The position numbers and the translations under genes are program-made. This document shows, piece after piece, positions 50,414 to 63,113 of a stretch of 64,000 bases of DNA (its first letter is position 1; every line of letters begins with the position of its first letter). This stretch comes from Longimicrobiales bacterium (GTDB lineage: Bacteria > Gemmatimonadota > Gemmatimonadetes > Longimicrobiales > Gaopeijiaceae), in assembly GCA_965249725.1 (NCBI GenBank), contig CBDFMQ010000002.1, positions 544,001 to 608,000 of the forward strand, in the 5' to 3' direction. Under the pieces are notes generated by a model, which saw only the letters and a program-made list of their open reading frames with translations, was not told where the DNA came from and did no database searches.

Positions 50414-50455
50414 TTCAGGCTGTTGCCACCTGGTGCTACACTCGGTCTGAGGTCC

Positions 50456-51421
50456 ATGGACGACACATTTCGCAGAGGACCGCTCCTCGTGCTTTCGGGC
50501 AGGGCAAACCGCCCTCTTGGAGCCGAGATCGGAGACATCCTCGGGGAAGATCCCGAATCTGCCACCATTCGCGATTTTGCGGATGGTGAAATCTTCGTCC
50601 GTATAGATAAGAATGCTCGTGGGCGGGACGTCTTCATCATCCAGCCGACCGTCGCGCCTGCCGACAGCATCATGGAGCTGCTCTTGCTGATCGACGCCGC
50701 GACGCGAGCCTCGGCGGCCCGGGTGACAGCGGTGGTTCCGTATTTCGGGTACGGACGTCAGGACCGTAAAGACCAACCTCGTGTGGCGATCGGCGCCAAG
50801 TTGGTGGCCAATCTCATGGTCGCTGCGGGGGCGGACCGCCTGATCGGTATGGACTTCCATCAGCACCAGATCCAGGGCTTCTTCGACATTCCTGTGGACC
50901 ACCTTTACGCTGCGCCCGTTCTGACTCAGTACTTCCTGGACAAGGACCTGCCGGATCTGGTCGTGGTGGCGCCTGATGTCGGTTCAGCCAAGATGGCCAG
51001 AGGCTTCGCCAAACGACTGGGCGGCACCTTCGCCATCATCGACAAGCGGCGACCGGCGGCCAATGAGGCCGAGGTGCTCAACGTGGTCGGTGAGGTCGAG
51101 GGTAGAACCTGCTTGTTGGTCGACGACATGGTCGATACAGGCGGCACACTGGCCAACGCTGTGCAGGCACTCGTTGATCGAGGAGCCCGACAGGTGTATG
51201 CGGGTGCCACGCATGCCCTGCTTTCTGGCAGTGCGGTAGAAAAGCTCGCGGCGGCACCCCTCGAAGAATTCGTTGTGACCAACACCATCCATGTGCCGGA
51301 GGAGCGTCGCTTCGACGGGCTGAAGATACTCTCTGTGGCTAACCTCTTCGCGAGGGCCATCGAGTGCGTTCACGAGAACGAATCCGTGACCCAACTGTTC
51401 GAGTTGGCCAGCGAGACTTAG
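50456..51421 (+). CDS. prs: Ribose-phosphate pyrophosphokinase
   Basis: FADGE, PYFGYGRQDRK, QIQGFFD, VAPDVG, VDDMVDTGGT. Confidence 0.97.
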   Translation: MDDTFRRGPLLVLSGRANRPLGAEIGDILGEDPESATIRDFADGEIFVRIDKNARGRDVFIIQPTVAPADSIMELLLLIDAATRASAARVTAVVPYFGYGRQDRKDQPRVAIGAKLVANLMVAAGADRLIGMDFHQHQIQGFFDIPVDHLYAAPVLTQYFLDKDLPDLVVVAPDVGSAKMARGFAKRLGGTFAIIDKRRPAANEAEVLNVVGEVEGRTCLLVDDMVDTGGTLANAVQALVDRGARQVYAGATHALLSGSAVEKLAAAPLEEFVVTNTIHVPEERRFDGLKILSVANLFARAIECVHENESVTQLFELASET

Positions 51422-51473
51422 CCGAGATCAGTAGTGATCTCCGGCGGAACTACAACAAAGTGGAAGCAAGAAG

Positions 51474-52178
51474 ATGAGTGTTAAAACGGGACTTACGGCG
51501 AAGCGACGCAGTGTGACCGGCAAAGGTGCGGCTCGGAAGATCCGTGCACTGGGTCAGGTACCGGCCGTGATCTACGGCAAGGACCAGGAGCCTATTTCAC
51601 TGACTCTCGATGCCCGAGAAGCCAGCCAGCTCTTCCACTCCATCTCAGTGGATAACACCATCGTCAACGTTCAGGTCGACGACGATGCCGAGGAGTTGGA
51701 AACGCTCGTGCGTGAGATCCAAATGCATCCGTTCCGGCCGGACATCGTGCACGTCGATTTCTACTGCATCCAGAGGGGTGTGGCCATGGAAATCGACGTT
51801 CCGGTCAACTACTCGGGGACTCCCGAGGGTGCGAAGCAAGGTGGTGTTCTGGAAGTGATCCTGCACGAGCTTCGGGTGAAGTGCATTCCGTCCAAGTTCC
51901 CCGAGAGCTTTGAGGTCGACGTCTCCGGGCTGGACGTGGGCGACTCGATCCACGCCAGGGAGATCGAGGTCGACGAAGATGTCGAGCTCTTGACCGACCC
52001 CGTCCGGACACTATGCCTCGTCGCCATTCCGAAGGAAGAGGTTGTCGAGGAAGAGGAAGAGGATCTGGAGTTGGCCGAGGGCGAAGTGGCAGAAGGGGAA
52101 GAGGGAGAAGAGGGAGAAGAGGGTGCCCCCGCTGCCGAGGGCGATGCCCCGGATGGAGACGAGGACTCCGACGGCTGA
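51474..52178 (+). CDS. rplY: 50S ribosomal protein bL25 (Ctc type)
   Basis: GKGAARKIR, VPAVIYG, EIQMHP..HVDF; acidic tail. Confidence 0.95.
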   Translation: MSVKTGLTAKRRSVTGKGAARKIRALGQVPAVIYGKDQEPISLTLDAREASQLFHSISVDNTIVNVQVDDDAEELETLVREIQMHPFRPDIVHVDFYCIQRGVAMEIDVPVNYSGTPEGAKQGGVLEVILHELRVKCIPSKFPESFEVDVSGLDVGDSIHAREIEVDEDVELLTDPVRTLCLVAIPKEEVVEEEEEDLELAEGEVAEGEEGEEGEEGAPAAEGDAPDGDEDSDG

Positions 52179-52201
52179 TCTCGCTCCTCGGATCTCGGGT
52201 C

Positions 52202-52765
52202 GTGAAAGTGATCGTGGGGCTCGGGAACCCCGGGGCCGAATACGACGACACCCGTCACAATGTGGGCTGGTGGGTCGTGGACCGGCTGGCCTACGACTGG
52301 GGATTCGAGTCCTTCGAGAAGCAAGGCCGAAGTCTGCAGGTAGACGGAGTGGTGGGTGATATCGAGACCCGCTTGATGAAGCCTACCACGTATATGAACA
52401 AGAGCGGCGCCGCTCTGATCTCTCTCGCCACGATTCCCGATTTCGACGTGACAGAGGACCTGCTGGTGGTCTCGGACGACGCCGCACTGGATGTGGGTCG
52501 GGTCCGCTTGCGGCCTCGCGGAGGTTCGGGCGGGCACAACGGCCTGAAGTCGATCACGGGTGCCTTGGGCACCGAGGAATACGGACGGCTCCGCGTCGGA
52601 GTCGGGCAGGCCCCGGGGAATATGGACCTCTCCGACTGGGTGCTGTCCCCGATGGACGGAGATGATGAGGATGTGGTCGTGACTCTTCTTCCGGGGCTCA
52701 CAAAGGCCGTCGAGGCCTGGATGAGCGTGGGTATGGAAGAGGCAATGAACGAGTTCAACCAATGA
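52202..52765 (+). CDS. pth: Peptidyl-tRNA hydrolase
   Basis: IVGLGNPG..Y..TRHNVG, KPTTYMN.SG, GGHNGLKS, RLRVGVG. Confidence 0.97.
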   Translation: MKVIVGLGNPGAEYDDTRHNVGWWVVDRLAYDWGFESFEKQGRSLQVDGVVGDIETRLMKPTTYMNKSGAALISLATIPDFDVTEDLLVVSDDAALDVGRVRLRPRGGSGGHNGLKSITGALGTEEYGRLRVGVGQAPGNMDLSDWVLSPMDGDDEDVVVTLLPGLTKAVEAWMSVGMEEAMNEFNQ

Positions 52766-52818
52766 AGCACCAACAATGAAGCACCAACAGTGAAGCACCA
52801 ACAGTGAAGCACGAACCG
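52763..52818 (+). repeat. 14-nt tandem repeat x4 between pth and hppA
   Basis: tgaagcaccaacaa tgaagcaccaacag tgaagcaccaacag tgaagcacgaaccg. Confidence 0.95.
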
Positions 52819-52856
52819 ATGCTGTCGAAGACAATGTCCACCGCACGAGGAACCTG

Positions 52857-54974
52857 ATGAGCCAATTGGTGACGTTTGCAAGCTGGTCCTGGGCGCTCGG
52901 CCTGACGGCGTTGGTCGTAGCCGGGATCATCTACCGCTACATGAAGGGGCAGCCCGTGGGGAGCCAGGCGATGGACGACCTGGCCGACCAGATCTATCAG
53001 GGGGCCATGGCCTTTCTACGACGCGAGTACACGATGCTCGCCGTCTTCGTGGTGGTTGTTGCCGCGCTGTTGGCGTGGGCGGTCTCGGGCCAGACGGCGC
53101 TTGCCTACCTGGTGGGGGCGTTGTGTTCGGTGCTGGCGGGCTTCTTCGGGATGACGGCCGCGACGCGTGCGAACGTGCGCACGTCCGCCGCGGCCAACGA
53201 CGAGGGCCAAGGAAAGGCACTCAGAGTCGCATTCTTCGGCGGAGCCGTCATGGGACTCTCCGTGGCGGCACTGGGTTTGGCCGGAATCGGTGCCCTCTAT
53301 TGGGTCTTCGGCGCGCCTGCGATCGGCGCGGCTGAACATCTCCGCTTCGCCGAGATCATCTCCGGCTTCGCCATGGGAGCGAGTTCCATCGCACTCTTCG
53401 CCCGTGTGGGGGGTGGCATCTACACCAAGGCCGCCGATGTAGGGGCAGACCTGGTCGGCAAGGTGGAGGCCGGTATCCCCGAGGACGATCCACGTAACCC
53501 CGCGACTATCGCGGACAACGTGGGCGACAACGTCGGCGACGTGGCGGGCATGGGGGCGGACATCTTCGAGTCCTACGTCGGCTCGGTTATCGCCACGATC
53601 GCCATCGCCGCCAGTTCGGCTGCCTTGGCCGGCAACGTCGGGAACGCGGTCGCACTCCCGATCGTGACCATCATGGTCGGTCTGGTCGCTTCTCTGGTGG
53701 GCATCGGCATGATGAAGGCTCTCGAGCGCACGGACCCGGCCGCGGCTCTGCGCAACGTGACGTTCATCGCCGCCATACTGTTTATCGCCGCCATGTTCTT
53801 CATCGTGCGTGCGCTGGACTTCCAGATGGTGGAGGGTGCGCGGACCTATCCGGCTCTGGGCCCGTGGTTCGCCATCGTCGCCGGTACCGTGGTGGGTGTC
53901 GCGATCGGTCTCGTCACGGAGTACTACACGTCCTCTAGGCCCGTCCGGAAGATCGCCGAGGCCAGCAACACCGGTGCGGCCACCAACCTCATCACCGGGC
54001 TTGCGGTGGGAATGGAATCGACCGCAATCCCGATGCTCCTGATATGTGTCGCGATCTTCACGTCCCACTGGTCTGCCGGCCTCTACGGGATCGGTATCGC
54101 TGCGGTGGGCATGTTGGCCACGGTGGGCGTAACAATGTCCGTCGACGCGTACGGACCCATCGCCGACAACGCGGGGGGGATCAGCGAAATGAGCGGATTG
54201 GGACCGGAGACGCGCGCCATCACCGATTCGCTCGACGCTATCGGTAACACGACGGCCGCACAGGGTAAGGGCTTCGCCATCGGCTCCGCCGCGCTCACGG
54301 CGCTGGCGCTGTTCTCGGCGTATGCCTCGAAGGTCGGGCTGGCAGAGACGGGGATCAACCTCGTGGACCCGATCGTTGTGATCGGTCTCTTCATCGGTGG
54401 CATGCTCCCGTTCTTCATCGCTGCCCTGACCATGACGGCGGTCGGAAAAGCCGCCCAGGGTATGGTCGAGGAGGTCAGGCGACAGTTCCGCGAGAATCCG
54501 GGAATCATGGATGGGACGTCCAAGCCGGATTCGGCGCGGTGCGTGGCGATCTCGACCGACGCCGCGCTCCGTGAGATGATCCTCCCCGGCGTCGCGGCGA
54601 TCGTCTCGCCGGTGCTGGTCGGTTACTTCTTGGGTGTCGAAGCTCTCGGCGGGTTCTTGGCTGGGGCCACCGTCACGGGCGTGCTCATGGCCCTCTTCAT
54701 GGCCAACGCCGGAGGTGCCTGGGACAACGCCAAGAAGCTCATCGAGGGTGGGGCACACGGCGGAAAGGGCTCCGAGCCTCACAAGGCTGCCGTGGTCGGT
54801 GATACGGTCGGAGACCCGTTCAAGGATACATCGGGGCCCTCTCTGAACATCCTTATCAAGTTGATGAGTGTCGTCTCTCTGGTGCTCGCGCCGTGGTTCG
54901 TACGGGTGCACGAGATCGATGTGGATGGGCAGATCTCCGGACTCATCGGCTGGGTAGCCCGCCTCTTGGGGTAG
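52857..54974 (+). CDS. hppA: Membrane-bound K+-dependent pyrophosphatase, probably Na+-translocating
   Basis: [53 protein letters not shown]. Confidence 0.95.
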
Positions 54975-55029
54975 GGGTGCCGACCCTCGGTGGAGGAGGT
55001 CGGCCGCGATGCGGCCGACCTCGAGCGCC

Positions 55030-56232
55030 ATGACCAAGGATCCGAACTTCGAGAACGCCGTGGCGTTCGCTCAGGACCTCATCCGCATTCCCTCGCCCTC
55101 CGGGCAGGAAGCTGAGGTGGCCGAGCGCGTCAGGCGCGAGATGCAGGACCTCGGACTCGACGACATCCGTATCGACGAGGTGGGCAATGTCGTCGGAGTC
55201 GTTCGGGGAGATGGGACGGCCCCACCCGTTCTTCTCAACTGCCACACCGATGTCGTAGCCGAAGGAGATCACGCCGAGTGGGAGTATCCGCCCTTCGGGG
55301 GGGACATCGCAGGCGGCTGCCTCCACGGTCGGGGAGCCATGGACATCAAGGGGCCCCTGGCGCTTCAGACCTACGCCGCTGCCGCCCTGGCCGGGCGTGC
55401 CGCGGGGGACGTCATCGTCGCCCACACCGTCTTCGAGGAGCGCGGCGGCCTCGGTATGAAGCACCTTCTCGAATCGGGTAGTGTGGAGCCGGGTGTGGTC
55501 GTGATCGGGGAGTCGACCCACGGTGACGTCTGTATCGGACACCGAGGCCGTGGAGAGGTCGAGGTCGTACTGCAGGGCCTCGCGGGCCACGCCTCGGCTC
55601 CGGATCGAGCCCACAACGCTCTGGACATGGTGCCCGACGTTCTGGGAGCCGTCCAGGAGTTGGCAGGACACCAGCCGGAGGATCCGGTTCTCGGAGCCTC
55701 GAGCCTGGTGGCCACGGGAGTGGACGTCCTGCCGGAGAGCCGCAACGTCATTCCGGACCGTGTCACGGTCGTCTTGGACTGGCGCGTGCTGCCCGGCACC
55801 GACGCCGAGAGCATGATCTCACAGGTGCGTGAGGCGGTAGCTCGTCGGCTCGGCGCGCTCCCGAAGGGCTTTGAGGTGACCGTGTCGATGGCGCGTGAGC
55901 GACAGGCGGCCTACACCGGGGTGGCACACGAGCGGAGTCTCTTCACTCCGGGATTCCTCATGAATCCGCTGGACCCGGTTGTGGTGGCCGCCGCTGCTGC
56001 CGTTGGACGACGGGAAGCGCCGGATGAGCCAGCCGCCGTGCGTCCCTGGACGTTCGCGACCGATGGGGGATGGAGTCGCGGCATTTTCGGCATCCCCACG
56101 GTGGGCTTCGCGCCGGGGGAAGAACGCTTTGCCCACACGAATAGAGAGCGACTGGACGTGGAGGAGGCGGAGTGGGCCTTCGCCCGATATCCCGACCTCA
56201 TTCTCGCTCTCCAGGACGCGCTCTCCGAGTAG
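55030..56232 (+). CDS. M20/ArgE-DapE family metallohydrolase (YgeY-like)
   Basis: [34 protein letters not shown]. Confidence 0.9.
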
Positions 56233-56310
56233 CATCAGGGGTTGATTCCACGAGTCTCCGTGCGGGGGTGCAAGCGGGGGTACAAAACCCCCCGGCATGG
56301 CCTATATTTA

Positions 56311-56374
56311 CGGGCTCATCCCGCTCCGCCTCTGTGGCGGGGCCCGTGCACTTACGGACCGTGGGAGAAACACT
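56311..56374 (+). promoter_or_regulatory. S6:S18 ribosomal protein leader (autogenous operator)
   Basis: Hairpins gctccgcc/ggcggggc and ccgt/acgg, then GACCGTGGGAG (CC immediately 5' of the RBS stem) upstream of rpsF. Confidence 0.6.
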
Positions 56375-57028
56375 ATGCGGCTGTATGAGATCGTCTACAT
56401 CTTCGATGCGACCCTCGACGAAGATGCGATCAACAAGAAGTTAGAGAAGTTCCACCCCCTCGTGACCGGGAGCGACGGAGAGGTCATGTCCGTCGATCAT
56501 TGGGGTGTCCGCCAGATGGCCTACCCCGTGAAGAAGCAGAAGGCGGGGTACTACGTCGTCGCTCAGGTTCGCTCCACTCCCGATGGACTGCCGGAGTTCG
56601 ATCGGATCCTCAAACTCGATCCCGAACTGATGCGGCACCTCGTGGTGGTGAACGAAGGCGAGCCGACTACAGGAAGGTCGATCCTCGGGGAGCGCCCGGT
56701 CCAGGCCCGCGACGACGACGACGAGGATGATCGACCGGTGCCGGATGAAGCGGCGTCCGAAGAGGGAGATGAGGACACGGTCAGGCGGCAAGGACCTCCG
56801 GAGTTCTCAGGGGGCCGTGGACGTCGGCGTCGGATGGAGGGGCCGGTCATCGAGCTCCTCAACTATAAGGACGTCTCGACGCTGTCTCAGTTCATGACCG
56901 AGCAAGGCAAGATTCTGCCGAAACGAACGACTAAGGTCACGGCTCGCTTCCAACGGCAGCTCGGTACGGCCATCAAGCGAGCCCGCTACCTTGCGCTGAT
57001 TCCGTATTTGAGGGACCACGAGGTCTAG
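56375..57028 (+). CDS. rpsF-rpsR: Fused 30S ribosomal proteins bS6-bS18
   Basis: MRLYEIVYIFD..WGVRQMAYPVKK..GYY (S6), acidic linker, NYKDV..L.QFMTEQGKILPKRTT...QRQL..AIKRARYLALIPY (S18); one open frame, 217 aa. Confidence 0.92.
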   Translation: MRLYEIVYIFDATLDEDAINKKLEKFHPLVTGSDGEVMSVDHWGVRQMAYPVKKQKAGYYVVAQVRSTPDGLPEFDRILKLDPELMRHLVVVNEGEPTTGRSILGERPVQARDDDDEDDRPVPDEAASEEGDEDTVRRQGPPEFSGGRGRRRRMEGPVIELLNYKDVSTLSQFMTEQGKILPKRTTKVTARFQRQLGTAIKRARYLALIPYLRDHEV

Positions 57029-57048
57029 GCCTCCTCGGAGCGGATTTC

Positions 57049-57993
57049 TTGGATTCCACCACGCGGCCGGAGCGCACTTGGCTACGTGCCGCCGCGCTGA
57101 TGCTCATCACGCTGGGGCTCGCTGTCGTCAGCTCCGGCGTGTTGGTGGCCGTGCCGTTTCTGGTTCTCGCCGCCGTGCTCGGTGCTCGCAGGTTTCCGAC
57201 GGTAATGGCCGCGGTACTGGCGGTGGTGGTTACGCTGGGAGCTACGGCCCGCGGCGGCATCTGGTATCTGGAACGGGGATGGACAGTCATCCTGGCCGGT
57301 TTCTTCGTGGTTCTCACGATGCGGTCGCCGGGAAGCAGGTTCTTGCCGCGAGCCCTCGGGGCGGTGGTCGGTACCTTCGGGTTGGTGGCGCTCCTCATGG
57401 TGGTCCGACCGGGGTCGTGGGCCATGGTGGATTGGTTCGTCACCGAGGGGATTATGAGGAGCGTGAGCCTCGCCATGAATCTGGTGAGTGCCTGGGATCC
57501 CGACATGGTGATCCCGACCACCATGGTCAACACGGCGTTCGAAACCGCGGCCCTTCAGGGGCGGCTGTTTCCGGCACTGCTCGGCCTCTCGTCCGTCGCG
57601 GGACTCGGCGTGGCGTGGTGGGGGTATGTTCGACTCGCCACGGAGAGTGATCAGGGACTGGGTCCACTCAAGGACTTTCGGTTCAACGACCACTTTGTGT
57701 GGCTGTTGGTCCTGGGCCTGACTCTGATCGTGTTGGGGCTGGGGGATGCATGGACACGGGCGGGCACGAACGCCGTCGTGTTCATGGGTGGGCTTTACGC
57801 AGTGCGAGGTGTCGCTGTGGTCTTGTTCTTTAATGGTGGCATTTCGCTATTAGGGTTTTTCGCGATGGCGCTCGGCATGTTGGTCTTTGCGCCTTTATTG
57901 ACGATGGGTGCCCTGGTCATCGGCGTCGGCGATACCTGGCTCGATCTGCGAGCCAAAGCCGAAGCGTTGTCCAGCGGCACCACAGACACGTAG
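57049..57993 (+). CDS. DUF2232/YybS-like membrane protein
   Basis: Multiple TM helices; FRFND.FVW; C-terminal G.GDTWLDLR; usual position between rpsR and rplI. Confidence 0.8.
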   Translation: MDSTTRPERTWLRAAALMLITLGLAVVSSGVLVAVPFLVLAAVLGARRFPTVMAAVLAVVVTLGATARGGIWYLERGWTVILAGFFVVLTMRSPGSRFLPRALGAVVGTFGLVALLMVVRPGSWAMVDWFVTEGIMRSVSLAMNLVSAWDPDMVIPTTMVNTAFETAALQGRLFPALLGLSSVAGLGVAWWGYVRLATESDQGLGPLKDFRFNDHFVWLLVLGLTLIVLGLGDAWTRAGTNAVVFMGGLYAVRGVAVVLFFNGGISLLGFFAMALGMLVFAPLLTMGALVIGVGDTWLDLRAKAEALSSGTTDT

Positions 57994-58006: not shown

Positions 58007-58465
58007 ATGAAGCTCATTCTGAGGAAGACGGTTGAGACGCTCGGAGGTCAGGGCGACATCATCGACGTAAAGCCCGGTTACGCGCGTAACTACTTGATTC
58101 CCCAAGGCCTCGCCTATCAGGCGAGTGACGTCAACCTGAAGAGGTTGGAGGAAGAGCACGCGCGGGCCGAGGAGAAGGCCAAGCACGACTACCTCGAGGC
58201 ACGCCGACGGGCGGTGCAGCTCGACGGGAAGTCGCTCGTCTTCCACGTCAGGGCGGGGGAGGACGGCAAGCTGTTCGGGTCGGTCACGAACGCCGACGTC
58301 GCCGATCAGCTGAATCAGTTGGAGCTGGATTTCGAGGTGGATCGCCGCACGGTCATACTCGAGGAACCGCTGAAGACGCTCGGCGACTTCGGCGTGCCGG
58401 TTCGCCTGCACAGCCAGGTCGAGGTCGAGGTCCGGGTGCAAGTGGAGCGCGGCGAGGAAGAGTAG
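58007..58465 (+). CDS. rplI: 50S ribosomal protein bL9
   Basis: MKLIL..LG..GD..VKPGYARNYLIP, GKLFGSVT. Confidence 0.97.
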   Translation: MKLILRKTVETLGGQGDIIDVKPGYARNYLIPQGLAYQASDVNLKRLEEEHARAEEKAKHDYLEARRRAVQLDGKSLVFHVRAGEDGKLFGSVTNADVADQLNQLELDFEVDRRTVILEEPLKTLGDFGVPVRLHSQVEVEVRVQVERGEEE

Positions 58466-58484: not shown

Positions 58485-58853
58485 ATGGGAGAACAGGCGA
58501 GCACCGACGTGTCCGAAATCGGCCAAGACGTAGAGCGAGCTGCTGAGCTTGCCCTTGAGCTCAAGGCTGCCGACGTGGTCGTACTCGATCTGCGCGGTAT
58601 TTCGAGCGCGACCGACTACTTCCTGCTGGCCACCGGACAGTCCGACGTCCAGGTGAAGGCGATCGGTGATCACATCATCGGGGAACTCAAGAACCAGGGT
58701 GTCCGGCCCGCCCACGTGGAAGGGTTGGAGGGAGGGCGCTGGGTGCTCATCGACTACATTGACTTCGTGGTGCACGTGTTTCATCCCGGAGCTCGGGAGT
58801 TCTACCAGCTGGAGCTTCTTTGGGGAGACGCCCCCAGACACGAGTTCGAATGA
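58485..58853 (+). CDS. rsfS: Ribosome silencing factor
   Basis: KAADVVVLDL, DYFLLATG, WVLIDY.D.VVHVF, REFYQLELLWGD. Confidence 0.96.
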   Translation: MGEQASTDVSEIGQDVERAAELALELKAADVVVLDLRGISSATDYFLLATGQSDVQVKAIGDHIIGELKNQGVRPAHVEGLEGGRWVLIDYIDFVVHVFHPGAREFYQLELLWGDAPRHEFE

Positions 58854-58997: not shown

Positions 58998-60506
58998 TTG
59001 GATCAGGGCCACTCGCGACTATACCCGTTTGACCCCGGCTCCGGCGATCTGCCGGAGATCGCGGCACCCGGCGTACTTTTTTCCGGCGCCGGGGGAGGTG
59101 TCGTCACCCTCATTGTCGTCCCCGACGTCATCCAATCGTCCTGGAGTCCGGCCGCAGCAGTAGCCGTGGCTCGGGCTTGGTCCGATCAGGGCCACCGTGT
59201 CGTTCTGTTCGATTTGTCGCTGACGAACCCGGTGCTTCACGACGCGTTGGGGCTGCCGAACGCCGTTGGCATTGTCAACCTCGTCCTGCGGGGGGCCTCC
59301 ATACCCGCGGTTGCACAGCAGGCCGGGAGTGCTGGATTCCAGTTCGTGGCCGTGGGCACGCCGGTTGACGATCCCACTGAAGTCACACTGACCGAAGGAT
59401 GGTCGACGTTCGTCGACGAGGTGGGACATGCTCAGGCTACCGTCCTCTTCTATGTACCTGCAGACCTCCCCGGAGTGGATGCCCTGGTGGCCCGGAGCTC
59501 TGCCACCCTTCTCTTGGCGGGCGATCCCACTGAGGCAGAGTGGGTGGCACAATCCTTCGCTCTCGATGAAGTCTCGGGTCTCGTGGCGGAGCGGGGTGAG
59601 GCACCCTCCCCGGCGGCAGAGCCGCCCGATACGTCCGAGGCGGACAGCAACGAGCTCGCTTTTCTGGCCGCCACGCCCGGAGGTGATGGTGAGCGAGAGG
59701 CCGAGGCCACGGTCGTGCACGAGCCGGTAGAGAAGTTCGAGCCCGAAGCCCGGCGCGAAGCCCAGCGCGAGGCCCAGCCCGAGGCCCAGCCCGAGCCGGA
59801 CACACGGGTCGCGCCTGAACCCCTTGAGGAGCCTGAGCCGAGGGTCATCCCGTGGCGGCCCGCCGCTGTGGGGACCATGGTCGGGGTCGGAGCCCTGGTT
59901 CTGTGGAAGATGATGTTCGCCCCAGACGACGCGCTTTCGCCGCCGGTGCCGGTTGAGACGCCCCAGACGACGACAACGTCCGAGGCCTCGTCTGAGCCAT
60001 CGGAGCCGGACCCGCAGCAAGCGTATTCGTTGACGCTGGCTGCCTACGGGTCGGGCGATGCAGCCGGAAGACAGGCTCAGGGGCTGGCGCAGCGACGTCC
60101 GGATCTGCTCTTCATCGTGGCACCGGTGCGGGTGGCCGATCGCGTATACCATCGGGTCCTGGTCGGGCCTGCTGCGGATTCTCTAGGTGCAGAGCGTCTG
60201 CGTGCCTCCCTAGCAGAGACTCTGGGCGGCGATGGCGCGAGTTGGATCGTGCGACCGACTCCGCTCGCGTTCGACTTCGGCGAATTCGATTCGACCCAGG
60301 CGGCGGCGGAGCGCGTCGCCGAGATCGGCAGCGCCGGCATCGGAGCGTATTACTTCGAGGTCTCCCGTTCGGCTGCCCCGATGTTCCGGGTCTACGCAGG
60401 GGCCTACGAGAGTCCTGCAGAGGCCGAGGTCATGAGGGGGGCGTTGGACGCTGCATTGGGAGACGTTCCGACGCTGGGGCCAAGGATCGGGCGATATGCT
60501 CGCTGA
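58998..60506 (+). CDS. SPOR-domain membrane protein with a degenerate N-terminal MinD/BY-kinase-like domain
   Basis: GHRVVLFDLSLTNPVLH..G..N..GI; Glu/Pro linker; TM helix; Y.L.LAAY..YHRVLVGP and FRVYAGAY SPOR-like repeats. TTG start uncertain. Confidence 0.7.
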   Translation: MDQGHSRLYPFDPGSGDLPEIAAPGVLFSGAGGGVVTLIVVPDVIQSSWSPAAAVAVARAWSDQGHRVVLFDLSLTNPVLHDALGLPNAVGIVNLVLRGASIPAVAQQAGSAGFQFVAVGTPVDDPTEVTLTEGWSTFVDEVGHAQATVLFYVPADLPGVDALVARSSATLLLAGDPTEAEWVAQSFALDEVSGLVAERGEAPSPAAEPPDTSEADSNELAFLAATPGGDGEREAEATVVHEPVEKFEPEARREAQREAQPEAQPEPDTRVAPEPLEEPEPRVIPWRPAAVGTMVGVGALVLWKMMFAPDDALSPPVPVETPQTTTTSEASSEPSEPDPQQAYSLTLAAYGSGDAAGRQAQGLAQRRPDLLFIVAPVRVADRVYHRVLVGPAADSLGAERLRASLAETLGGDGASWIVRPTPLAFDFGEFDSTQAAAERVAEIGSAGIGAYYFEVSRSAAPMFRVYAGAYESPAEAEVMRGALDAALGDVPTLGPRIGRYAR

Positions 60507-60653
60507 GGGCCGGAATACGCCGGCTTCATGTGGACCTCATCTAGAGGGTGGGTTACCTTTGCGGCCGTCCAAGCGGGGAGTACGACGGCCCCGTGCTTCG
60601 GGCGCATCGTGCCCGTCGCGGCGCGGAGTTTTGACCATGCGAAGGGTGCACGG

Positions 60654-63113
60654 ATGAGTCCGGATATTCCAGACTGGGAGTCCATTGATCCGACCGGCGA
60701 GGCCCTCTCCGAACCTGTCGGAGCGGCCCTCGACTCTGCACACTCGGTTGCCGGGTGTGTGGTCGTCTTGGTCGCATCGGACATCGACCGACAGTGGGGG
60801 GCCAATACGAGCCTGCTCATCGCCCGCGAGTGGGCTTCAAAGGGCCGCAGCGTGCTGCTTGCGGACGCGTCCCTTGATGACCCGGTCCTCCACGAAATCG
60901 TCGACGGAGGCGGGAGTGAGGGACTGTCCGACGTCATGCTCTACGGAGCTTCGGTCAAGCAGGTAGCTCGCCCGGTGGAGGGCGGTATTCTCCTGTGCAC
61001 AGCGGGCACACCCGTCGGTGACACCGAGGAGGTGTTGGCCCACCCCAAGTGGGATATGGTGATTCAGGGCTTCCAGGAGGCCGGGGCTCTGCTGCTCTTG
61101 CACCTGTCCGCTGGCACTCCGGGAGCCGGGACCCTGCTCGACAGGGCTTCGAGAGTCATCCTTATTTCAGAATCGGACGGAGATACAGCCGCAATCGTCG
61201 GTGCCGCGTCGGACCGGCTCCTCACCGTGGTCGGTCCTGCCGTCGCAGAGGAGGTGGAGTCCCCGTCCGAGCCCGCCACCGTCGTCGAGGAGGTGGAGTC
61301 CACGGGCGAGGCTGCGACCGTGCTCGAGGAAATGGAGCCCGCGACCGAAGCGTTCGCCGTTGAGGATGACGGCGAGGAGGAGGCGACATCCGAACCGGAG
61401 CTCGAGTCCGCTCCGACGATGGAAGTTGAGCCGGAGCCCGCAGAGGTGCTCGAGGAGGAGCCGGAACCGGAGGTTGAGATGGTCTCTGAAAACGATGGCG
61501 AACTAGAACCCGACCTCGAGTCGGAGCCGAGTCCCGAGTCGGAATCGGAGCCAACGGACGGCGAGCTCTTCTCGATGGACGAGCTTCCCGAGTCCACCGG
61601 CAACGCGGCGGAGCAGGTCGACGAGTCCGGCGCCTTCAGTTTCGACTCAATGTCGGGTTCGCAGTACGACGCGGACGATGACACCCAAGCGGAGGCATCT
61701 ATGGATGAGCCGGCTGCCCCGGTCGAGCAGACCCCTTCGCCCGGTGGTGAGGCTGAGGAAGAGGCCGAGCCCTCCTCAGAGGCGGATGAGGCGACTCCGT
61801 CCGTTCCGGAGGAGGCTGCCCCGGCGACGACGGAGGCGGTGGAAGACTCGGGCATGGTAGAAGGCGTGACCCGATCCTCATTGGAGATGGATGAGGAGGC
61901 CGTGGCGGCGGCGGCGGAGGAGGCCCATCTCGATATGGACGGCTTCGAGACCGGCGCAGGCTTCGATCTTGAGGATGCCCCGCAAGATGACGATGGCGGG
62001 GTCGCGGAAGAGCCGGCGTGGGGAGGTGAGGCCGAGGACGAAGAGGCGGCCTCTGATGATTTCGGCTTCGGTGGCGGCGGTCTCGAGGTTGAGGCCAGCC
62101 CCTTCGCTGAAGAGGACGCACCGGTCGATGAACATGAGGGCGAGGGTGTGGATGTGGGTGAGGAAGCCGCCGGCCTTGCGGGTGCTGCCGGTGACGAGGC
62201 TTTCGGCGATCGCGGTCCCCCGCCGGCGGAGCCCGATGCGCTCGACGCCGGCGATGACGGACAGCCTGCCGATACGGATGGTGGCTCCATTGCCGTAGAT
62301 CCGGCCGCCGAGGCGATGGGTGGCGGCCCGGAGACCGCTTCCGCCGAGGACGAGGCCCCGGATGTAGAGATCGAGTTCGACGATGCGCCCCCGGCCAAGA
62401 TGTCGGGGTTGGAGGAGTTGGAGCGTAGGCGGAAGAGAGGCGCGAGAGTTCGGCAACTGCTCGTGGCAGCTGCTACGGCGCTCGTCGTCGGGGGTGGAGG
62501 CGTCGGCATCGCGTACTTCGGTTTCGTCAACATTCCCGGCATTACGCCGCCGGATCGTGTGCGGTCTGGGGTGCCCGCCCCGGTGGAGCTCCCCGGGCCG
62601 ACGCCGGTGACACCTGTGATCAGCCATGTGCTCGCGGTCGATGCGTGGCGGAGCCTGGAAACGGCTTTGAGCACCGTGGATGCTCTTCGGGAAAGGCTTC
62701 CCGAGTACCTGTTCTTCATCACGGTCACCGAGGTGGACGGGGGTGACCAATACGTGTTGCTCGCGGGCCCGGCGTTCAGTGCGGTGGAGGCCAATGCGCT
62801 GAAGGAGCCGCTGGCCGAGGTCCTTGACCGATTGGATCCGGCCACGTGGACAGTTCAAGAAGCGAGGTATTCCTTCTTCTTCGGGGAGTATTCGGATGCC
62901 GCCGACGCGGCGGGCAGAGTGCAGTCTCTGAACGCAACAGCGATTCCGGCTCACGCTCTCGAGGTCAGCTATCCGGATGAGACCACGGCGATGCGCGTGT
63001 ATGGCGGCGCCTTCGTGGACGAGTTTCAGGCGGCTGCGATGGGACGACTCCTCCGCTCCAACGACCTGGATGACGTACGTCTGACTGAACGAAGAGGTCG
63101 ACTGCCCGAATGA
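60654..63113 (+). CDS. Paralogous SPOR-domain membrane protein with a degenerate P-loop domain and very long acidic linker
   Basis: GRSVLLADASLDDPVLH..EGLSDV..LCTAGT; several hundred D/E-rich residues; RRKR plus TM helix; YVLLAGP and MRVYGGAF. Start moved to ATG 60654. Confidence 0.72.
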   Translation: MSPDIPDWESIDPTGEALSEPVGAALDSAHSVAGCVVVLVASDIDRQWGANTSLLIAREWASKGRSVLLADASLDDPVLHEIVDGGGSEGLSDVMLYGASVKQVARPVEGGILLCTAGTPVGDTEEVLAHPKWDMVIQGFQEAGALLLLHLSAGTPGAGTLLDRASRVILISESDGDTAAIVGAASDRLLTVVGPAVAEEVESPSEPATVVEEVESTGEAATVLEEMEPATEAFAVEDDGEEEATSEPELESAPTMEVEPEPAEVLEEEPEPEVEMVSENDGELEPDLESEPSPESESEPTDGELFSMDELPESTGNAAEQVDESGAFSFDSMSGSQYDADDDTQAEASMDEPAAPVEQTPSPGGEAEEEAEPSSEADEATPSVPEEAAPATTEAVEDSGMVEGVTRSSLEMDEEAVAAAAEEAHLDMDGFETGAGFDLEDAPQDDDGGVAEEPAWGGEAEDEEAASDDFGFGGGGLEVEASPFAEEDAPVDEHEGEGVDVGEEAAGLAGAAGDEAFGDRGPPPAEPDALDAGDDGQPADTDGGSIAVDPAAEAMGGGPETASAEDEAPDVEIEFDDAPPAKMSGLEELERRRKRGARVRQLLVAAATALVVGGGGVGIAYFGFVNIPGITPPDRVRSGVPAPVELPGPTPVTPVISHVLAVDAWRSLETALSTVDALRERLPEYLFFITVTEVDGGDQYVLLAGPAFSAVEANALKEPLAEVLDRLDPATWTVQEARYSFFFGEYSDAADAAGRVQSLNATAIPAHALEVSYPDETTAMRVYGGAFVDEFQAAAMGRLLRSNDLDDVRLTERRGRLPE

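Follow-up and report, generated by a model that had tools for sequence, protein, structure and literature searches.

The stretch of DNA analysed here (the window, 64,000 nucleotides of contig CBDFMQ010000002.1) belongs to a Longimicrobiales bacterium of the family Gaopeijiaceae, hereafter the host family. On its forward strand, a single open frame running from ATG 56375 to TAG 57028 (56375..57028) forms a fused rpsF-rpsR gene, which encodes a 217-aa protein (P0001) joining ribosomal proteins bS6 and bS18, normally two chains that pair up. To our knowledge, fusions of two core ribosomal proteins are unusual in bacteria. The bS6 domain (residues 1-94; 56375..56656) is followed by the S6 tail and an acidic tether of variable length (residues 95-140; 56657..56794), a conserved junction motif (residues 141-157; 56795..56845) and a bS18 core of the C-minus type (56849..57028). 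Pfam places S6 (PF01250) at residues 4-91 (E 1.2e-24) and S18 (PF01084) at residues 162-209 (E 3.8e-21), and the NCBIfam models TIGR00166 and TIGR00165 match residues 1-94 and 159-213, both above the curated cut-off, with an inter-domain stretch of about 64 residues (95-158). Cysteine is absent from the entire protein. AlphaFold models the fusion with pLDDT near 80-95 for both domains (91-96 recorded for the bS6 domain), a pTM of about 0.7 and a low-confidence linker. In Foldseek searches, the modelled S6 domain, which has the ferredoxin-like S6 fold, aligned with bS6 chains of known structure, with an rmsd of 1.3-2 Å for the top matches, and PDB 1G1X and 7K00 are among the matches. The open reading frame and both sets of domain models confirm the reading of a preliminary description of this DNA, i.e., a complete S6, a linker and a Cys-free S18 held in one 217-codon frame, and the fusion of bS6 and bS18 is real. 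Only one S6 match and one S18 match were found in the genome (95.8% complete), both of them within the fused frame. Neither ssb nor priB lies between the two parts, as had also been stated; since both are likewise absent from every unfused Gemmatimonadota locus read, their absence is older than the fusion.

Downstream on the same strand, and likely in the same operon, are a hydrophobic 314-aa ORF (57049..57993), which is also present in genome G007, and rplI, encoding bL9 (58007..58465; PF01281, PF03948 and TIGR00158). The hydrophobic ORF, for which no Pfam match was obtained at E<=1, stands at what we take to be the position usual for DUF2232/YybS. The ribosome silencing factor RsfS is encoded at 58485-58853, directly after rplI, and is followed by two tandem ORFs (58998-60506 and 60528-63113) with alike N-terminal regions and C-terminal repeats, long acidic low-complexity linkers and one hydrophobic segment, which by eye we presume to be MinD-like and SPOR-like. 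The upstream region (50423-56232) holds genes resembling, by eye, prs, rplY, pth and a membrane H+-pyrophosphatase, together with an M20 peptidase gene; H+-pyrophosphatase-like and M20 peptidase genes also precede the fusion in G007.

Because some S6-S18 hybrids in the databases are clearly chimeric (six of 41 were dropped, see below), the host fusion could have been regarded as an artefact of assembly or sequencing. The locus was therefore checked in four of 21 listed sequencing runs, representing four studies, with the best-matching run excluded as the possible source. In all four runs, one contig spans the whole linker up to 56863, beyond the start of the S18 core; these contigs carry a single substitution at 56470 (third codon position, Gly32), and the linker contains neither an indel nor a stop, in agreement with the intact frame described earlier. 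Besides, both Pfam domains occur in all 120 of the best protein matches. The agreement of the contigs of four studies, and the presence of the fusion throughout the family as described below, refute the artefact reading, which we regard as extremely improbable. The contigs of all four runs also show a 13-base tandem duplication at window position 56271, which the window lacks; it lies just upstream of the putative promoter, outside the gene and the leader, and represents a strain variant or a collapsed repeat.

The fusion was found throughout the host family. Thirty-four of the 36 host-family genomes searched gave one stop-free match across nearly the whole query, and of the other two, one is fused with a longer linker (G020) and one is divided over two contig ends with the junction intact (G032). 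In the phylum sample, all 24 host-family genomes were fused, with 14 single matches and 10 cases of two matches in one frame among the matches listed, and translation confirmed the fusion at all 10 of the latter loci. In the order sample, S18 fell within a frame of at least 221 aa in 50/50 host-family genomes. A total of 55 fused loci (50 + 5) were translated after L031 had been dropped as a duplicate of L003, six of the 50 being without a family code; all 55 one-frame loci read come from members of the host family or bear its junction. A set of relatives with separate rpsF and rpsR throughout would have spoken against the preliminary description, and the host-family relatives proved to be fused. 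In one locus, L038:2501-3219, a typical fused gene is interrupted at the junction by a frameshift of one base, and its S18 frame lacks a Met; this frameshift is probably an assembly error, given that L017, L036 and L037, the closest relatives, have the fusion.

Among the Gemmatimonadota loci read outside the host family, the two genes are separate. Matches were obtained in 96 of 100 sister-family genomes of the order sample; in all but five of these the frames were not long enough for a fusion, and translation showed the remaining five to be split. Possible fusions suspected in eight sister-family genomes (G057, G059, G253, G280, G268, G303, G271 and G288) likewise all proved to be split. In two sister families, the genes are separate at all 28 loci read, and S18 is of the zinc type and carries CxxC. 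Outside the order, the fusion was looked for in 13 of the 169 genomes of the phylum sample, and all 13 were split. In family f7 of another order, where long open frames had raised the suspicion of a fusion, 9/9 loci read were split, and most of them encode an S6 with a very long acidic tail. Six loci of this family (L071-L076), whose order is a different one within the class, encode an S6 of 183-254 aa in total with a very long Ala/Glu-rich acidic tail. The ATG of a C-plus S18 comes directly after the S6 stop and in frame with it, so that a single step separates these genes from fusion or readthrough. A 1249-aa frame in G007 was rejected as a larger fusion, being an overlapping GC-rich frame. 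Eight unpublished genomes, none of the host family (G037, G056, G114, G210, G232, G284, G296 and G346), enter these results as part of the sample tallies only.

A maximum likelihood tree was built from an alignment of 73 rows and 155 columns in which the S6 and S18 cores were concatenated and the linkers left out. The 18 fused host-family rows form one clade (support 100/99) among unfused Gemmatimonadota; as judged from these cores, the tree shows a single origin of the fusion within the order. Because the fused clade is nested in this way, the zinc-free S18 of the host family seems to have been derived in place and not imported. CxxC is found in none of the 50 fused loci, the S18 part being Cys-free in 49 and having a single Cys elsewhere in one, as opposed to 25 of 32 unfused Gemmatimonadota loci. 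Zinc ligands have also been lost without fusion in Gemmatimonadota, as indicated by the Cys-free S18 of L088 (G128) and the CxxD variant of the Gemmatimonas-like loci L040-L045.

In split sister-family loci, S18 starts -1 to +4 bases from the S6 stop in 11 of 12 cases, sometimes in frame. With this near-zero spacing, and with no ssb or priB in between, the loss of a stop or a small frame change would have been enough for the fusion. Based on these observations, we propose that rpsF and rpsR were already adjacent, 0-4 bases apart, in the ancestor of the host family, and that the S6 stop was lost or a small frame change occurred, which would have made the acidic tail of S6 continuous with the basic N-terminus of S18. 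The branch on which this happened would also have seen the loss of the CxxC zinc ligands, with a fixed Pro/aromatic/Gly/Arg motif taking their place, and the fixation of an extra stem in the leader.

The fused proteins of the 50 loci are 206-295 aa long, and the distance from the S6 end to the S18 motif NYKD is 60-148 residues, with a median of 71 (two of these values being mis-anchored by the pattern). The linker is acidic, with 23-43% Asp+Glu in 22 fused loci; in the host protein it is predicted to be disordered from about residue 109, with pLDDT <50 over residues 109-138 in the first AlphaFold model, and it would loop out as a flexible spacer. It ends in the junction motif (Pro-Pro-x-Phe, Gly and an Arg run), located where the zinc knuckle had been, which stands in for the ancestral S18 N-terminus and its CxxC. 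The models are inconsistent on the motif, with a pLDDT of about 60-70 in the first and <50 over residues 144-152 in the second (93 sequences).

The junction motif contains an ATG (56834, Met154), and the two genes could merely share a frame, with S18 also or mainly started internally, for instance at this codon, giving a long chain plus free S18. The codon is indeed ATG in 20 and GTG in 6 of the 50 fused loci, host included, i.e., a possible start in 26/50. However, the ATG is not conserved: 24/50 loci have a non-start codon there (CAC, GTC, ATC, GTT, GTA, ACG, TTA or CGC), and in 21/50 no ATG, GTG or TTG occurs 30 to 5 codons before NYKD, so that a separate S18 start is impossible in these. 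By distance from NYKD, residues 144-146 are equivalent to the ancestral S18 Met and residues 152-155 to the former CxxC; Met154 falls within the latter and is therefore not the ancestral start. ATG 56834 is not preceded by an SD-like sequence, and no stop separates the domains, hence S6 is always made with S18 attached. Independent initiation of S18, which the preliminary description had named as a reading that would overturn it, is thus highly improbable.

Instead of being kept as one chain, the product could be a polyprotein precursor, cut within the junction motif, behind the aromatic residue 144, so that a normal S6 and a normal S18 are set free. The motif is kept in 48 of the 50 fused loci beside a linker of variable length, which is far more conservation than would be needed in a passive tether. 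The aromatic residue of the motif stands where most split relatives have the ancestral S18 Met (17-19 residues before NYKD, i.e., fusion residues 144-146); a cut at 144 would yield a small-residue N-terminus followed by an Arg run, as in unfused S18. On the other hand, two members of the host family (L066 and L084) depart from the motif, and it is lacking in other fusions whose linkers are very short. Prp is the protease that cuts the L27 extension in Firmicutes, and a profile search for it (PF04327) found it in none of 41 genomes, host included, with the control positive in 3/14. Retention of rimI (31/36 host-family genomes) would fit such a cut but says little, since rimI has other substrates. 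RimK exceeded the cut-off in one of five genomes, a sister-family genome, which is uninformative. Cleavage is unlikely to be imposed by geometry, given that two of the other fusions (P0201 and P0220) join their Pfam domains by 7-10 residues. We therefore consider cleavage at the motif unlikely. The preliminary description had left it between a linker accommodated on the platform and a linker that is cleaved, and the variable length and predicted disorder of the linker, the 7-10-residue joins of other fusions and the lack of Prp favour accommodation.

The residues by which S6 and S18 meet each other and their RNA are kept in the fusion. According to Babina et al. 2015 (PMC4647458), the dimer interface comprises S6 R44, Y48, P49 and R85 and S18 Y23 and K24, S18 K60, R61 and R63 contact the conserved CC of the leader, and these residues matter for dimer formation and repression. 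Their counterparts in the fusion, with the E. coli numbering checked against the E. coli S6 and S18 protein sequences, are R46, Y50, P51, R87, Y164 and K165 for the interface and K201, R202 and R204 for the RNA contact. Seven of these (R46, Y50, R87, K165, K201, R202 and R204) are invariant in 93 sequences, and P51 and Y164 are at least 90% conserved. Given the single copy and the conserved residues, the fused protein is predicted to bind the 16S central domain in the 30S subunit. The earlier proposal that the S6:S18 dimer has been made covalent is supported by the family-wide fusion, which is the only copy of either gene, and by the retained interface. Overall, the fused protein is probably synthesised and maintained as a single chain that adopts the usual S6:S18 arrangement and binds to the 30S platform, and we predict that it represses its own translation through a CC-containing leader; the full-length protein in ribosomes, its escape from cleavage and its autoregulation are what we infer from these sequences.

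A leader of the S6:S18 type (56319..56367, forward strand) precedes the fused gene, as indicated by alignment, pair counts, fold and a model built from the leaders of the family. A -10-like hexamer at 56303..56308 on the same strand is a putative promoter element, with similar hexamers in the same place in many relatives by eye; the consensus promoter scan did not call it, and the promoter/terminator scan yielded nothing useful. The GACCGTGGGAG element reported just upstream of the fused ORF was located at 56357-56367, with hairpins upstream of it. From the alignment, helix P1 pairs 56319-22 with the SD strand (56363-66), P2 is a hairpin at 56323-43, P3 is a hairpin with a family-typical CCG/CGG stem at 56344-57, and an unpaired CC lies at 56359-60. 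The location before rpsF, the SD within a stem and the unpaired CC correspond to the layout set out in PMC4647458, where Matelska 2013 and Fu 2014 are cited for the S6:S18 leader, and the pairing of the SD by P1 and the unpaired CC are as in the Rfam consensus for E. coli. Across 26 aligned host-family leaders, the three helices have 97.7% of their cells paired, far above slid controls. Eight cells carry a compensatory change, a number reached in 0/500 shuffles; 8 of the 15 pairs are invariant and three change on both sides, which 72/500 shuffles also reach, so that the stems have thin support from covariation. The fold z is -2.3 for 56316-56372. Pair counts were taken from the leader alignment, the P1 registers of the regex parser being noisy and unused.

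A model built from host-family leaders finds one strong site in the window. It also detects the site preceding rpsF in each of the 21 further family loci, in L038 and, at E<=1, in 17/22 unfused Gemmatimonadota loci; it does not find the E. coli leader. Support from the Rfam S6:S18 leader model, to which the preliminary description had pointed, was not obtained: RF02893 (RpsF_leader, gathering threshold 37 bits) gave no match at E<=10 in 56150-57100, with an E. coli control scoring 110 bits. Since RF02893 also misses 5/5 unfused Gemmatimonadota loci, this is weak evidence against a leader in the host. P3 was parsed in 46/49 fused loci, and identified by eye in the other three, as opposed to 0/24 parsed unfused loci (8 unfused loci were unparsed). 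In a further set, the P3 pattern fired on 2/16 unfused loci, of which L114 was judged by eye to be a false match and L102 contains an inserted hairpin of another kind; the unfused L070 and L079 also have insertions at this place. Thus, extra stems at the P3 place are not unique to the host family, and it is the invariant P3 that, in these alignments, is typical of it. In the scheme we propose, the single-chain product would bind the CC-containing leader, which pairs up the Shine-Dalgarno sequence, and would repress its own operon.

The Arg-rich motif and the tether could alternatively form a new platform element that, like the bS21, bS18 and bS6 of Bacteroidia, sequesters the anti-SD tail, or that replaces bS21. 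The junction motif is basic and family-specific, and PMC9976891 describes an anti-SD pocket in Flavobacterium that is lined by S6 and S18. Against this, the anti-SD of the host is intact, and a clear SD peak occurs at -12 to -9: SD motifs lie 9-12 bases before the ATG of 512 of 1678 ORFs from a rough ORF caller, as compared with 219 in a control window. A global blindness to SD sequences is contradicted by this peak, and a subtler role in initiation may exist. A loss of bS21 or rimI along with the fusion was considered and rejected, with bS21 present in the host and in 33/36 host-family genomes and rimI retained as given above. Taken as a whole, this explanation is very unlikely.

Similar fusions appear, from protein sequences, to have arisen separately in other bacteria. 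Among the best 150 representatives of the protein search, at least 41 proteins contain both domains. Six belong to the host family and six were dropped as probable chimeras or internal deletions (P0148, P0182, P0189, P0209, P0217 and P0236, the last of which has CxxC), leaving 29. CxxC is found in 0 of these 29 (at least 29 exist), a count that is biased because the query is Cys-free and several lineages, e.g., the E. coli branch, are C-minus anyway. Both Pfam families matched in all nine of the other fusions scanned. Of ten that were looked up, four represent clusters of 3-5 members, one comes from a 2.9-Mb contig and the others are single records; these fusions are known from protein records alone and some may be artefacts. 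Placing all fusions in one clade was rejected (p-AU 4.75e-79), with at least 5 changes on a tree that has few unfused outgroups and some long branches, which points to separate origins. Three Cys-free fusions (P0130, P0139 and P0140) fall within a Gemmatimonadota-like clade, apart from the host family and without its motif; the two of them that were looked up are single records. In the ESM Atlas, three automatically named S6+S18 clusters are mostly Gemmatimonadota (65, 162 and 55 members), and one is mostly Pseudomonadota (88 members, score 0.85), the latter a lead only.

The recurrence of Cys-free fusions leads us to a tentative hypothesis, which we consider rather doubtful: the S6-S18 fusion could be a recurrent substitute for the S18 zinc ribbon, with the tether removing the need for zinc and, in the host family, the freed segment becoming an Arg-rich RNA-binding arm that co-evolved with the third leader stem. 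This would explain both the change from CxxC to Cys-free on the fusion branch and the lack of CxxC in the 29 other fusions. The fusion, the Cys loss and P3 share one branch and amount to one event, so they are not independent evidence.

A full-text literature search, with subscription papers mostly and supplements likewise outside its scope, found no paper on a natural S6-S18 fusion; the main text of PMC3353972 contains none of the terms 'fusion', 'fused' and 'S18' and is uninformative on the matter. The fusion itself is recurrent and already automatically annotated, as 'Ribosomal protein S18/Ribosomal protein S6 domain-containing protein' and 'Multifunctional fusion protein' in database clusters and as 'ribosomal protein S6/ribosomal protein S18' at JGI. 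What is distinctive in the host family is the junction motif that replaces the zinc knuckle together with the three-stem leader. The fusion shows that the S6:S18 pair can exist as one chain, a state that is fixed throughout a family and has been attained independently several times. It offers a natural single-chain reagent for studies of 30S platform assembly and of the S6:S18 leader, a means to test directly if a zinc ribbon of the ribosome can be replaced by a covalent tether, and a clean marker for one Longimicrobiales family. It is also an annotation trap, since several database records are named S6 only and S18 can therefore be scored as missing.

Compared with known systems, the host does not share the genome-wide SD loss that accompanies the Bacteroidia platform pocket, as described in PMC9976891, and uses SD sequences normally. 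The other natural S6-S18 fusions have the same domain order and, in 29/29, no CxxC, but their linkers range from about 7 to about 70 residues and lack the junction motif of the host family. Like the C-minus (zinc-free) bS18, the fused S18 has no zinc ligands, but being the sole S18 of the genome it is no additional, zinc-regulated paralog, and in the tree it derives from the C-plus S18 of the order; the CxxC plus distal Cys/His of the C-plus (zinc-ribbon) bS18 are absent from it. The leader resembles the rpsF leader (RF02893 and PMC4647458) in its place before rpsF, the pyrimidine strand pairing the SD, the inner hairpin and the unpaired CC 5' of the SD strand, and it differs in the extra invariant CCG/CGG stem, which would give a three-way junction, and in a predicted effector that is single-chain. 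As to the canonical bS6:bS18 pair (E. coli rpsF-priB-rpsR-rplI), the fusion keeps both folds, the interface and the RNA-contact residues, with rplI downstream. It differs in being one polypeptide instead of two separate products, with a tether of 60-148 residues, no free S6 C-terminus (and so no RimK-type tail), no free S18 N-terminus and an operon without ssb or priB, a state that is ancestral in Gemmatimonadota.
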